Shown in pieces: positions 44,183 through 54,321 of a DNA stretch of 64,000 bases; position 1 is the first letter of the stretch, and each line of letters begins with the position of its first letter. The DNA is from an uncultured delta proteobacterium. GTDB taxonomy: Bacteria > Myxococcota > Myxococcia > Myxococcales > Myxococcaceae. The stretch covers positions 1 through 64,000 of the forward strand of contig CAVYSY010000021.1 of assembly GCA_963771175.1 (NCBI GenBank), written 5' to 3'. Made by a program: the position numbers and the translations under genes. The notes beneath the pieces were generated by a model that was not told where the DNA came from, ran no database searches, and saw only the letters and a program-made list of their open reading frames with translations.

Positions 44183-45148
44183 TCAGGCCACCGAGGGCAC
44201 GGGCTTCTCCTTCACGTCCGCCCTCGGTGCGCCCAGCGCGAGCCCCGCCGCGCTCAGCCGCACCAGCACCACCCACACCACGTCCGCCAGCAGCAGGTGC
44301 ACGAGCTGCATCCACACCGGCGCCAGCAGCACCAGGTTCACCAGCCCCGCCACCAGTTGCAGCGCGTACAGCACGCCCAGCAGCCTCGCGGACTTCCGCA
44401 CCGCGGGCGAGGGCCGCAGCCGCGCCACCATCGTCGCCGAGAACACCACCAGCGCTCCCACGGCCACCGCCAGCACCGGGTGCAGCACCCGCAGCCGCAG
44501 CAGCACGTGCGCCGTGGGCGACACGTCCTGGCTCAGCCCCTCGGCGAGGCTCGTCGCCGGGAAGAGCGTGTCCCCCAGCGCCGCGATGGCGCCGCTCACC
44601 CCGAGCACCAGCACGCCCACCAGGCTCCCCGCCACCAGCCACCCCGTCAGCCCCTGCCGCCTCAGCACCACCCGCTCCCGGCCCTCCGCCCACCAGCACG
44701 TCAGCGCCATCGCGCCCACCAGCAGGAACGTGTTGATGAGGTGCGCCGCCATCCACCAGGCCCGCGCGGTGGAGGGGTTGTCCGCCACCATCTTGAAGAG
44801 CACCAGCCCCGCGCCCACCGCCGCCTCCGTCAGCATGAAGAAGAGCGAGGCCCCCGCCGCCTTGCGCACCGGGTGGCCCTTGGCGTGCGCCCGCAGCCCC
44901 CACACGCACAGCACCACCGCCAGCACCAGCGCCAGCCCGCTCGTCAGCCGGTGCGTGTACTCGATGAGCGTCTCCACGCTCGGCGCGCGCGGCACCACCT
45001 CGCCGTTGCACACCGGCCAGTGGTCTCCGCACCCGGCGCCCGAGCCCGTGGCGCGCACGTAGGCGCCCCACAGCACCACGGCCAGGGTGTAGACGAGGGT
45101 GAGCCAACTGAAGATGCGGAAGGAACGGGAGGACACGGAGGAGCTCAT
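44183..45148 (-). CDS. ctaA: COX15/CtaA heme A synthase family
   Basis: GAYVRATGSGAGCGDHWPVCNG, IEYTHR, conserved His in TM helices. Confidence 0.85.
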   Translation of the reverse strand: MSSSVSSRSFRIFSWLTLVYTLAVVLWGAYVRATGSGAGCGDHWPVCNGEVVPRAPSVETLIEYTHRLTSGLALVLAVVLCVWGLRAHAKGHPVRKAAGASLFFMLTEAAVGAGLVLFKMVADNPSTARAWWMAAHLINTFLLVGAMALTCWWAEGRERVVLRRQGLTGWLVAGSLVGVLVLGVSGAIAALGDTLFPATSLAEGLSQDVSPTAHVLLRLRVLHPVLAVAVGALVVFSATMVARLRPSPAVRKSARLLGVLYALQLVAGLVNLVLLAPVWMQLVHLLLADVVWVVLVRLSAAGLALGAPRADVKEKPVPSVA

Positions 45149-45415
45149 CGGCGGGCAGGTCCCCGGACCAGGGGGCACGGGTGGCTCCTCCCTAACGCAC
45201 TTCGCCCCCGACCGCCGCACCCGCGTGCCGCCGCTCCGGGCGCCTGCTCCCTTCTCCCGCCTGCCTTGTCGGTGTTCCTCCTTCCCTATCCAGCCGGGTC
45301 TCTGGATACCCCCCGCCGCGCTTTGGATGGGCCGCTGGAAAGGCCTGCCTGCCCTCGGCGGCGTCCTGGAAAGGGATTGGATGATTTCCAATCGGCCCCC
45401 AGGGTCCGAAATCGT

Positions 45416-45431
45416 TGGCACGCGAACTGCT
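45416..45431 (+). promoter_or_regulatory. Sigma-54 -24/-12 promoter
   Basis: TGGCACGCGAACTGCT (GG-N10-GC); no ORF follows on this strand. Confidence 0.75.
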
Positions 45432-45438
45432 ACATGTT

Positions 45439-45532
45439 GACTCGATAACGATTTCGAGTTCGGGCGCCTCGGTGCCTGAAGCGCTCCGTGGGTCGGGGGA
45501 CCCCCCCACCTCGGCCCGCGAGCGCATCTTTT
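45439..45532 (+). ncRNA. Pxr-like small regulatory RNA
   Basis: Three consecutive hairpins directly after the sigma-54 site; third loop GACCCCCCCA; ends in TCTTTT. Confidence 0.65.
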
Positions 45533-45626
45533 CGCGGTTGTCGTCGTAGGTACGCACCGCGGGTCGGGTTCGCCCCCTGTCCTGGCCCGCGGTGTTCTTA
45601 TGTCCTCGGCTCGCGGCTCCGGGCGC

Positions 45627-48599
45627 TCAGCCCGTGATGCGCAGCCGATCCGCCCCCAGCACCGCCGGAAGCGAGCCGAAGGCCAGCGAGCGCTCGATGA
45701 CGTTGCGCAACTCGCGCACGTTGCCCGGCCAGGAGTGCGCGGTCAGCGCGGCCAGCGCGTCCGGCCCGAGCCGCGGCGGCTCCTGGCCCTCGGGGGTGAG
45801 GTGGCGGACGAAGTGGCGCGCCAGGGCGAGCACGTCCTCGGGCCGCTCGCGCAGCGGAGGCACCCGCACCGGCACCACCTGCAGTCGGTAGTAGAGGTCC
45901 TCGCGGAAGCGGCCCTCGCGCACCAGTTGTCCCAGGTCGCGGTGCGTGGCGGCGATGACGCGCACGTCCACCTGCACGGGCCGCGTCTCGCCCAGGGGGA
46001 AGATTTCACCGTTCTCCAGGAAGCGCAGCAGCTTGGGCTGCACCTCGAGCGGCAGCTCGCCAATCTCGTCGAGGAAGAGCGTGCCCCCGTGGGCGGCGCG
46101 GATGACGCCCGGGTGGTCCGTGGCCGCGCCGGTGTAGGCGCCGCGCCGGTGGCCGAAGAGCTGGCCCTCGAAGAGCTCGCGCGGCACCGCGGCGCAGTTG
46201 AAGGCCACGTAGGGCCTGTCCGCCCGCGAGGACAGCTGGTGGATGGCGCGCGCCACCACCTCCTTGCCGCTGCCGGACTCGCCGGTGACGATGACGGTGG
46301 CGCGCGAGGCGCTCAGCCCCGCAAGCTCCGTCTTCAGCCGCCGCATGGCGGGCGAGGCGGCGATGAAGCCGGGCACCTCCGGCGTGCCCTCGGGCTCGCG
46401 CGTGGGGGAGGGCGCCGCCTGGGCGAAGCCGCGCAGCACGGCCACCTCCAGCGCGAAGCCGGCCAGGCGCGCCAGTGCGGTCATCAGGGCCCGTCCGTCC
46501 GCGGGCAGGGGTCCGGCCACGCCCAGGCGCAGCCGGCGGCCACACCCGTCGCCGAACTCCACCCACTCGCTGGCGGGCACGCCGTCCTGGCCCAGCAGCG
46601 GCGTGGCGTGGCCCTGCGAGTCCAGCTCTTCCAGGCGCGGGGAGCGGCCGGGGAAGAGTCCCTCCAGCACCGCCACCAGCTCGCGCTGGATGAGGGGAGC
46701 GCCCATGCCGCGCACGGCGAGCCGCTCGAAGGGCACCAGCAGCGACTCGGCGCCCAGCCGGGGCGTGGCGTCCGAGGGCACCGTCTCCGGCGCCCGCGCC
46801 TGGAAGTGCTCCGGGCCGGAGTTCGGGGGCGGGGTGATGCCGTGGCGGCGCAGCTCCTCTTCACTCTGGTGGAGCCGCGCCGCGGCGCCGGGCTCGCCCC
46901 AGGCGCGCGCCACCAGGGCGAGCGTGCGGCGGGTGAGGGCGCTCTCCGCGACATCTCCCGCGAGGGTGAAGGTGGCCAGCGAGGCCTCCAGCTTCTCGCG
47001 CGCCTCGTGCGAGCGGCCCTCGCGCGCGAGCAGCACGCCCTTGTGGCGGTGGAGCATCGCGGTGCACCAGGCGGAGGGGAGCTGCTCCATCATGGCGCGG
47101 GCCCGACGCAGCGCCGCGCGGGCCTCGGGGAGTTGGTTGGCCGCGGCGCGCGCTCCTACCTCGGCGATGACGCAGTCGCGCCGCAGGTAGGGCCAGCCGC
47201 CCACTTCCAGGGCGCGGGCGTGGGCGGCGGCGAAGCCCTCCGCGGCCCGTTGCGCGTGGCCCTCGGCCCAGTCCGCCAGCGCCTCCACCCAGCACCCGTA
47301 GACGCGGGTGAGGGGCCGCTGGATGGGGCCGCTGTATTCCGAGAGCCGGGCCGCCAGCCGGCGCAGGTCCGCGTAGCGGCCGGTGAGATACAGGAGGCGG
47401 GCGCGCTGCACCGCGAGGTGCTGGGGCGTCCATTTCAGCTCCTCCACCACCGCGTCTCCCTCGTCCAGCACCGCCTCGGCTTCGGCGAAGCGGGCCAGCC
47501 GCAGCAGGGCATCCGCCTCCGCGCGCACGGCGAAGATGAAGGAGAAGCCCCGGGTCATCCGCCCGCCCCAGGCCGCCTCCCGGGCGCGGCGGATCAGCGC
47601 GAGCGCCTCGTCGGGCTCGCACGCCTCGTCCAGCCGACGCTGCGCGAGGAAGGCGAGGGCGCGCGCCTCGAGGAAGGCATAGCCCATGCGCGCCGCTCCC
47701 TGCGCCACCTCGCGGAAACGTTGCGTGGCCAGCGCGGCCTCGCCGCGGATGGCGGTCTCGTGCGCGATGACGTCCGCGGCCATCAGCCGCAGCGCGGGGT
47801 CCGACACCCCGGCGAGCGACTCCTCCATGTGCCCGGACTGGCGGGCGATGAGCTCGGGGGCAACCAGGTTGAAGGCCGCGGTGGCCTCCGCCACGCGCAG
47901 CATGGCGCCCGCCTCCGCACGCGCGAAGAGGGCGTGGTGCAGCAGCGCCTCGGCGCGCGCCACGTGGACGTTCGCCTTGCCCGCGTCGAAGTGCCGGCCG
48001 TCCGGCGAGGCGAAGAGGTTGGCGGCCATGACATGGACGAACACCTCGGCGGACCCGGGCAGCAGGCCCGCCTCCGCCTCGGCCAGGTGGGGCAGCAGCA
48101 GGGAGAAGGCGCGCCGCACGTCCTCGGAACCCCAGCGGTACACGTAGGCCAGGCTCACCGACGCCAGGGCGCGCGCTCCCACGGAGCGCAGCTCGCCCGA
48201 GCCCAGCAGTGCCATCAGGGCGTCCTCGGCGGCCCGCCACTGCGCCCGCTGCAGGAGCGCCACGCAGGTGGAGAGCTGGGCTCGCTCCTCGCGCGAGAGC
48301 TCCTGGCGGAGCACGTTCTGGCCCAGTCGGGCGGGAGGAGGGGGCAGGAGCGGTTGCCCGCCCTCGGCGAGCTGGCGCAGCGCCTGCATCACCCGGCCTC
48401 TCGGCCGGCGGGCTTGCGGAGCGGCTGGCGGTAGCTCCCAGCGGTATACGGTGAGGGGCGTTACTCCGAGCTGCCGGGCGAAGGCCGCGCGGCTGAGTTC
48501 TCCACGCAGCGCGCGAATCGCCTCGGGTCCGAACCCCTCTGCTCCAGTCGTCGCCACCTGTTCATCCCCTTGCGTCCCCACCACCCGCGCTGCCTTCAT
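45627..48599 (-). CDS. Sigma-54 enhancer-binding protein with N-terminal XRE HTH and helical middle region
   Basis: [59 protein letters not shown]; no C-terminal Fis HTH. Confidence 0.88.
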
Positions 48600-53577: not shown

Positions 53578-54321
53578 ATGCGACTCGCCGAGCTGCGGGA
53601 GCGCGTCCCCAAGGTGATGATGGGGGCGGACGGCATCGGCCTGCTGGCCACGCTGCTGACCCTGCTGACGGTGGGGCTGGGCTTCATCGCGCTGTCGGAC
53701 GAGGTGCGGGAGAAGGACACCCAGCACCTCGACGAGCGCGTGCTGCTGTCGCTGCGTCGAGCGGGCAACCCGGAGGTGCCGATCGGCCCCCATTGGCTGG
53801 CCGAGGTCGCCCGGGACGTGACGGCGCTGGGCAGTGTGTCGGTGCTGACACTGGTGGTGTGCGCGGTGAGCGGCTTCCTCGTGCTGGTGCGGCGCTGGCG
53901 GACGCTGGCCCTGGTGGTGGGCTCCACGTTGGGCGGGGCGCTGGTGAACGCGCTGCTCAAGAGCCTGTTCGCCCGGCCGAGGCCCACGGTGGTGCCGCAC
54001 CTCACCGGAGTGCTGATGGAGAGCTTCCCCAGCGGGCACGCGATGCTGTCGGCCATCGTCTACCTGACGCTGGGCGCGCTGCTGGCGCAGCTCACCGAGC
54101 GGCGGTGGCTCAAGGCGTACCTGGTGGGCGTGGCGCTGCTGCTCACGCTGTTCATCGGGCTGACGCGCGTGTACCTCGGTGTGCACTACCCGACGGACGT
54201 GCTGGGCGGGTGGATGGCGGGGCTGGCATGGGCGCTGCTGACGGCGCTGGTGGCGCGCGCGGCCAAGCGGCGCAGCCCCGCACTGCGCGAGGAATCGCGG
54301 GGAGAGACGGCTCCGTCATGA
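53578..54321 (+). CDS. PAP2 family phosphatase
   Basis: KSLFARPRP, SFPSGHA, TRVYLGVHYPTDV. Confidence 0.9.
   Translation: MRLAELRERVPKVMMGADGIGLLATLLTLLTVGLGFIALSDEVREKDTQHLDERVLLSLRRAGNPEVPIGPHWLAEVARDVTALGSVSVLTLVVCAVSGFLVLVRRWRTLALVVGSTLGGALVNALLKSLFARPRPTVVPHLTGVLMESFPSGHAMLSAIVYLTLGALLAQLTERRWLKAYLVGVALLLTLFIGLTRVYLGVHYPTDVLGGWMAGLAWALLTALVARAAKRRSPALREESRGETAPS

Follow-up and report, generated by a model that had tools for sequence, protein, structure and literature searches.

A candidate sigma-54-dependent small RNA gene with cytosine-rich hairpin loops beside ctaA in Archangium and related myxobacteria

The window analysed here (64,000 nucleotides, positions 1 to 64,000 of contig CAVYSY010000021.1 of an Archangium genome) contains an intergenic region bounded by ctaA, the gene of heme A synthase, and by the gene of a sigma-54 activator (Table 1). 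Both genes lie on the minus strand, so that relative to the plus-strand unit between them ctaA is divergent and the activator gene convergent; their Pfam matches bear out the initial annotation, which had given the neighbours as ctaA and an activator other than PxrR. By eye, ctaA could start at an ATG at 45146 or at a GTG at 45177. Its leader (~45185–45215) carries a motif conserved between genera, GAAGTGCGTTA on the ctaA strand, followed by a G-rich Shine-Dalgarno site, and the G-run of the Myxococcus ctaA leader, AAGGGGGAG, is complementary to the C-rich loop described below.

The activator has an unusual build: an N-terminal XRE-like helix-turn-helix, a stretch of about 700 amino acids that bears TPR repeats, and the AAA+ domain of sigma-54 activators, but no receiver domain. 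It ends right after the AAA+ lid and is therefore without a C-terminal DNA-binding domain. At the N-terminus Pfam gives a weak match to HTH_28 (residues 29–54, E 0.0034, below the cut-off), and a Protein Atlas search with the N-terminal part returned TPR proteins only, none of them scoring above 0.80, and thus gave no more than a lead. Orthologues of the activator with 64–66% identity occupy the same locus in Myxococcus and in a smaller genus of the family (g47).

Table 1. Features of the ctaA–activator intergenic region and its flanking genes (positions in the window).
Feature	Position	Strand	Evidence
ctaA (heme A synthase, COX15-CtaA), divergent	44183-45177	-	Pfam PF02628, 3.9e-39
Upstream regulatory region, seven TGGAW/WTCCA half-sites	45288-45391	.	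half-site count and cassette search
Sigma-54 (-24/-12) promoter, TGGCACG-N4-CTGCT = TGGCACGCGAACTGCT	45416-45431	+	sequence and motif count
SL1, short A/U-rich hairpin, loop UAACGAUU	45440-45459	+	fold
SL2, 8-bp hairpin, YUYG tetraloop (CUCG here)	45460-45479	+	fold and 19 orthologues
SL3, first C-loop hairpin, 17 bp	45481-45525	+	fold, alignment, R2 61 bits
First U-run, TCTTTTC	45527-45533	+	sequence
Second C-loop hairpin, 15-bp stem, C5 at 45573-45577, then U-run	45554-45601 (hairpin 45554-45595)	+	conservation, R2 49.5 bits
Sigma-54 activator, 990 aa, convergent	45627-48599	-	Pfam, NCBIfam, translation

The claim that a sigma-54-type promoter without a downstream ORF precedes a structured unit held up: the promoter is followed by a strand-specific fold and a U-run, and no plus-strand ORF was found downstream of it. 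There are two matches to the strict pattern TGGCAYG-N4-YTGCW in the window, where 0.10 would be expected, and 22 across the 9.8-Mb genome, where the reversed control gives 10; the GG and TGCT elements of the promoter are unchanged in 19/19 aligned orthologues. The other match to this pattern in the window (TGGCATGGGCGCTGCT, 54224–54239, plus strand) is located within a long plus-strand ORF (53578–54321) and is probably due to chance. Taken by itself, the -24/-12 spacing would place the start of transcription at about 45441–45443. All seven TGGAW/WTCCA half-sites fall within 121 nt upstream of the promoter (0.29 expected), a number matched nowhere else in the 64-kb window; among the elements of this region is the palindrome TTGGATGATTTCCAA (45377–45391), whose spacing to the promoter is fixed. 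Overlapping these TGGAT repeats there is a weak Rfam match to DUF3800-III (45335–45402, plus strand; 13.2 bits, E 7.9), which at far under the gathering score of 43.8 was rejected as a chance match. It was the only one at E≤10 around the site, and no Rfam family reached its gathering score anywhere in the window.

Downstream of the promoter, the plus strand folds far better than expected by chance (-55.5 kcal/mol, z -4.84; 0/200 shuffles as good), compared to a z of -0.75 for the minus strand, where 47/200 shuffles were as good. Three stem-loops are present, as the initial annotation had stated; the pairing that it gave for SL2, however, leaves a 2-nt loop, and the actual helix is shifted by one base and has a loop of 4 nt. 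SL3 is topped by a 10-nt loop, GACCCCCCCA (45499–45508), in which seven consecutive cytosines occupy 45501–45507. The U-run after SL3 is likely to be the end of a short form of ~90 nt, by predicted intrinsic termination; a scan with a terminator consensus did not report SL3 because the loop limit of the scan is 8 nt. Further downstream lies a second C-loop hairpin that had been overlooked in the initial annotation. Its U-run is found 3' of the hairpin on the plus strand only, and it is likely the 3' module of a long form of ~160 nt, the whole 167-nt stretch including this hairpin having a z of -5.32. Neither of the two U-runs is long and clean. Nearly every column of the second hairpin is unchanged in 19/19 genomes from two genera, a degree of conservation above that of the RNA body, and strong BLAST matches to it are restricted to the same two genera.

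The initial annotation had proposed covariation across orthologous regions as a check, and the structure came through it well. In an alignment of 19 orthologues, 94.3% of the cells pair in the three-stem structure, a share that drops to 48.5% or lower on sliding the partners, and 14 cells carry two-sided changes against 4.5 in shuffles (reached by 0/500), although such shuffle controls overstate the significance because the alignment contains many closely related genomes. The three stems contribute differently. In SL1, 81.6% of the cells pair, changes are one-sided only and three genomes show a register shift, while in SL2 100% of the cells pair, with five one-sided pair changes (G-C to G-U) and one two-sided change. 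Many of the substitutions are of this G-C to G-U kind, which keeps pairing on the plus strand only and produces A-C mismatches on the minus strand. In this alignment no change is seen in the promoter, in the C-run or in a large part of the stems. A broader alignment of the C-loop hairpin module (47 sequences from seven genera, leaving out exact duplicates, a hairpin of another type and one located within the activator gene) gave a similar picture: the 11-bp inner stem pairs in 93.3% of the cells, two-sided changes amount to 44 cells against 13.7 in shuffles (0/500, with the same caveat on close kin), and five loop cytosines are invariant.

From these alignments we built two covariance models, R1 for the candidate RNA (from the 19 orthologues) and R2 for the C-loop hairpin module. 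Searched across the Archangium genome itself, R1 matched the candidate locus only (107 bits) and R2 matched the two hairpins of the locus, plus one marginal match (E 0.49). BLAST for paralogues of the candidate within this genome returned only short chance matches.

We then looked at the distribution of the locus. By BLAST, the stretch is present in 17/17 other Archangium genomes and in one other genus; no match was obtained in the 18 remaining family genomes or in 24 genomes of other families. R1 recovered the RNA in 8/8 sampled Cystobacter genomes (53–71 bits) and gave weak matches in three further genera. Those in Myxococcus (30–33 bits) were discarded, since in 3/4 genomes they fall not on the RNA but on an adjacent hairpin overlapping the activator stop codon; the true Myxococcus orthologues were located by gene neighbourhood and promoter cassette. 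These loci share the layout of ctaA, TGGAT-type repeats, sigma-54 promoter, stem-loops, C-loop hairpin and 3' end of the activator gene. The orthologue of an M. xanthus strain, for example, has three stem-loops with the loop UUUCCCCCCU and folds with a z of -4.79 on the plus strand versus -0.59 on the minus strand. R2 found the locus in 34/151 genomes of the family, belonging to 7/51 genera, and one weak hit among 106 genomes searched outside the family. A single copy of the promoter cassette, GGATGATNTCC-N27/28-TGGCAYG-N4/5-TGCT, is present in each of 52 of the 208 family genomes, with 0 control matches; by genus, it is present in 16/17 Archangium (the seventeenth locus, which gave no cassette match, is at a contig end), 2/2 g55, 1/1 g47 and 32/32 Myxococcus/Pyxidicoccus (g69) genomes. 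As far as sequence comparison goes, the candidate family spans Archangium, Cystobacter, Myxococcus/Pyxidicoccus and four smaller genera. Many of the genomes that bear an orthologue have two tandem C-loop hairpins, and what is conserved across the whole family are the C-runs in the apical loops only, the 5' stem-loops varying between genera. A degenerate pattern of the loop, searched over all genomes, was of no use: it matched 65 places, mostly in Streptomyces and other GC-rich bacteria, which by a rough estimate is about what chance would give.

Another small element was noticed at some of these loci. The stretch from the RNA to the activator stop codon holds, in Myxococcus, Pyxidicoccus and g55, a conserved hairpin that has a 22-nt core and a GGGG loop (349–372 in the M. 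xanthus locus, L214); on the strand of the activator the loop would read CCCC. This hairpin may be a pairing partner of the C-loops or else part of the activator 3' UTR. The exact 22-nt Myxococcus-type element also appears in two unexpected records, one labelled Comamonas sp. KCTC 72670 (L217) and one labelled Corallococcus terminator BB12-2 (L213), which may be mislabelled or contaminated. In the model search, neither the 14 nor the 11 genomes sampled from genus g13 yielded a member.

The neighbouring genes were followed by tblastn at 13 loci from seven genera. The RNA gene is adjoined by ctaA in 12/13 and by the activator in 9/13; the exception for ctaA is one Myxococcus-group locus (L166), where no match was found within the DNA covered there. 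Cystobacter departs from the general layout in several respects. There the RNA adjoins ctaA but the activator gene is not beside it, a query with the N-terminal part of the activator found no match in 3/3 Cystobacter genomes searched, and the sigma-54 cassette is present in 0/8. At one Cystobacter locus, inspected by eye, a sigma-70-like TGGCCA-17-TATGGT replaces the cassette (L068, 1440–1500). At this locus a gene on the same strand begins ~110 nt past the RNA terminator. Activator and sigma-54 cassette co-occur, and both are missing in the Cystobacter genomes searched for them, from which we infer that the activator drives the RNA; the adjacent activator is probably the cognate one of this RNA gene, and it is conceivable, as a guess, that it binds to the TGGAT-type repeats. 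The promoter swap and the missing activator in Cystobacter would amount to a natural experiment in the rewiring of the input to an sRNA.

Given the position of the hairpins, they could also be taken for the 3' end or terminator of the activator gene, or for a source of antisense or interference in cis on the activator, with no trans-acting RNA involved. The unit does abut this gene, whose stop codon is 26 nt past the second U-run, and contigs from RNA libraries bridge SL3 into the activator coding region (records 17 and 25, both strandless). Besides, no intrinsic terminator is visible for the activator on the minus strand, so that the activator mRNA may extend across the RNA gene. Such a role nevertheless fits poorly, because on the minus strand there is no U-run after either hairpin, the structure is weak there (z -0.75, and -0.59 in M. 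xanthus, no better than shuffles) and the RNA persists in Cystobacter, which retains it without an adjacent activator gene. The conserved G-U pairs, which become A-C mismatches on the minus strand, and the conserved sigma-54 promoter, which faces the opposite way, argue in the same direction, and we consider this explanation very improbable. A leader of a downstream gene was discarded as well for six genera, in which there is nothing 3' on the same strand; only Cystobacter has a gene there, at ~110 nt.

Soil RNA contigs from four libraries cover parts of 45258–45725 at low depth (X1 45258–45499, X2 45451–45599, X3 45470–45660 and X8 45478–45725; depths 2–40). They are strandless and show no stops at the predicted ends, and one of them takes in the promoter region together with DNA upstream of the promoter. 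A pile-up at 45690–45740 corresponds to a conserved AAA+ motif from many organisms. Since libraries of this kind can contain DNA and these contigs carry neither strand nor marked ends, expression of the candidate RNA is not concluded from them.

The best point of comparison for the candidate is Pxr, the RNA that blocks fruiting-body development while nutrients last. The two have much in common: they occur in the same bacteria, with a sigma-54 promoter and an activator gene next door, a length of ~100 nt, three stem-loops and an apical loop with six to seven cytosines (the 10-mer C7ACC is common to both in this genome), and both would work without Hfq. One suggestion of the initial annotation was that the locus is a dispersed Pxr paralogue. 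The Rfam model of Pxr (RF01812) speaks against it, with no match in the window at the gathering score (80 bits) and none at E≤10 in 45200–45700, while on contig C31 of the same genome it found four tandem pxr copies (81.3–99.3 bits). No Rfam family at all matched six orthologous loci at E≤0.1. The reciprocal searches were at chance level: on the pxr hairpins R1 reached 7.3 bits at most with filters off (E ~1), and R2 gave no match on pxr at E≤1. The other suggestion, a new sibling family, is the one favoured by these results.

The pxr array itself (C31, ~275,100–276,150, minus strand) consists of four tandem copies, one more diverged than the others, each with a sigma-54 promoter TGGCA-N6-TGCT; CTGCAA-type repeats are found upstream, and an ORF that by eye resembles a GNAT acetyltransferase follows. 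A published Northern probe, given in a passage of PMC5568312, matches three places on this contig. According to the same paper, pxr lies downstream of pxrR (nla19), between pxrR and the NADH dehydrogenase/pxrA genes; the neighbours of the candidate, ctaA and the HTH-TPR-AAA+ activator, differ from this location, and the pxr array is on C31. The requirement of Pxr for seven cytosines in SL3, as given in the initial annotation, proved wrong: in the pxr copies of this genome the seven cytosines sit in the loop of the first stem-loop. This agrees with PMC5684412, in which replacing C by A in the loop of SL1 is reported to inactivate Pxr and an 8-bp segment of the SL3 stem is reported to be required; the functionally essential C-rich loop is that of SL1. 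A match of the candidate to this 8-bp segment is unlikely because the RF01812 covariance model fails here.

A true Pxr paralogue, that is, a diverged and relocated pxr copy that keeps the function of Pxr, would explain the common sigma-54 promoter, three stem-loops, terminator hairpin and C7ACC in an apical loop, and would be in line with the similar taxonomic ranges (Myxococcus, Archangium, Cystobacter) and with pxr duplication, which PMC5568312 describes in this genus. We find this very improbable given the failure of RF01812 at this locus and its orthologues when it detects four true pxr, the chance scores of the reciprocal models, and the different position of the C-run and type of upstream repeats. 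The candidate shows no sequence or structure homology to Pxr by the covariance model of either family, has its C-run in the terminator-proximal hairpin (SL3) and not in SL1, is located at ctaA and the HTH-TPR-AAA+ activator instead of pxrK-pxrR and pxrA, is preceded by TGGAT and not CTGCAA-type repeats, and is single-copy, often with a second C-loop hairpin, as opposed to four tandem pxr. Judged on these comparisons, the candidate appears to resemble Pxr in design, not in ancestry.

Like sigma-54- and activator-dependent sRNA genes in general, the unit has its own -24/-12 promoter, upstream repeats, no ORF, a structured body and a predicted intrinsic terminator. It is very probably a real, uncatalogued gene for a regulatory sRNA with C-rich hairpin loops, and we regard it as likely that the gene stands alone and encodes a trans-acting sRNA, of a family outside Rfam, that is transcribed and acts along the following lines. 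The HTH-TPR-AAA+ activator would bind the TGGAT-type repeats upstream and switch on sigma-54 RNA polymerase at the promoter, with a start near 45441. The transcript would end either after SL3 (~90 nt) or after the second hairpin (~160 nt). Its working parts would be the invariant C-runs, which one or two long hairpins hold in their apical loops, and these runs would pair with G-rich stretches near the ribosome-binding sites of target mRNAs and block their translation without Hfq. M. xanthus has no hfq (PMC5684412 and the preprint 10.1101/2025.09.11.675593), and a figure legend of the latter, a TRIC-seq study, has Pxr and another candidate sRNA pairing near the Shine-Dalgarno sequences of several mRNAs. 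With the C-runs as the only feature conserved family-wide, the lack of hfq and this pairing at Shine-Dalgarno sequences, we infer that loop-to-mRNA pairing is the most likely action.

Alternatively, the C-rich loops might bind a protein or titrate another RNA, and not act on ribosome-binding sites of mRNAs. The loops are conserved far beyond the needs of pairing, as is the entire second hairpin in Archangium, and the GGGG-loop hairpin just downstream in Myxococcus and g55 could pair with the C-loops. However, no candidate binding protein is known, C-rich loops of other Hfq-free bacteria act by pairing with G-rich ribosome-binding sites, and Pxr, with the same kind of loop, pairs near Shine-Dalgarno sites in the figure legend of the preprint (10.1101/2025.09.11.675593). 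A protein-binding or sponge RNA is thus the least probable of the explanations considered, and we retain pairing of the loops with mRNAs.

Other known sRNAs offer partial parallels. The 6C RNA of Actinobacteria has two hairpins with runs of about six cytosines in the loops and is also found in high-GC bacteria that form multicellular structures, but no Rfam family matched the window, the phylum is different and 6C is not known to have a sigma-54 promoter. RsaE/RoxS of Firmicutes carries several unpaired C-rich motifs that pair with G-rich Shine-Dalgarno sequences without Hfq; its sequence is unrelated, and its promoter control and phylum are others. RsaE/RoxS is tied to respiration and redox, and at our locus it is the gene of heme A synthase that is conserved next door, although a link of the candidate RNA to respiration would be a guess from the gene neighbourhood. 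As to transcription, Qrr (LuxO), GlmY (GlrR), CrcZ (CbrB) and NrsZ (NtrC) are all sigma-54 sRNA genes with upstream activator sites and often with the activator gene nearby. The activator at our locus differs from theirs in having an N-terminal helix-turn-helix and TPR repeats instead of a receiver and a C-terminal DNA-binding domain.

Judged by titles and abstract openings, the papers found in our searches include none on a second sigma-54 sRNA in myxobacteria or at this locus. The TRIC-seq preprint (10.1101/2025.09.11.675593) lists new sRNA candidates of M. xanthus, and the candidate RNA may overlap one of them, such as MXnc1. The presence of the RNA in this model species and its Pxr-like seed make it of interest to myxobacterial biology. 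To our knowledge, Pxr is so far the only well-studied myxobacterial sRNA, and its targets stayed unknown for 15 years. At its most speculative, and this we think rather unlikely, the candidate could be a second developmental or metabolic gatekeeper that shares the C-run seed and part of the targets of Pxr, has an HTH-TPR-AAA+ protein as sensor, is linked through ctaA to heme A and cytochrome oxidase biogenesis, and had its input rewired in Cystobacter; if this were true, respiratory and nutrient state would converge on the same ribosome-binding sites. The family is a candidate addition to RNA catalogues, and it raises the questions of what the C-run loops recognise, which signal the odd activator senses, and whether a sibling RNA backs up or opposes the developmental control exerted by Pxr.
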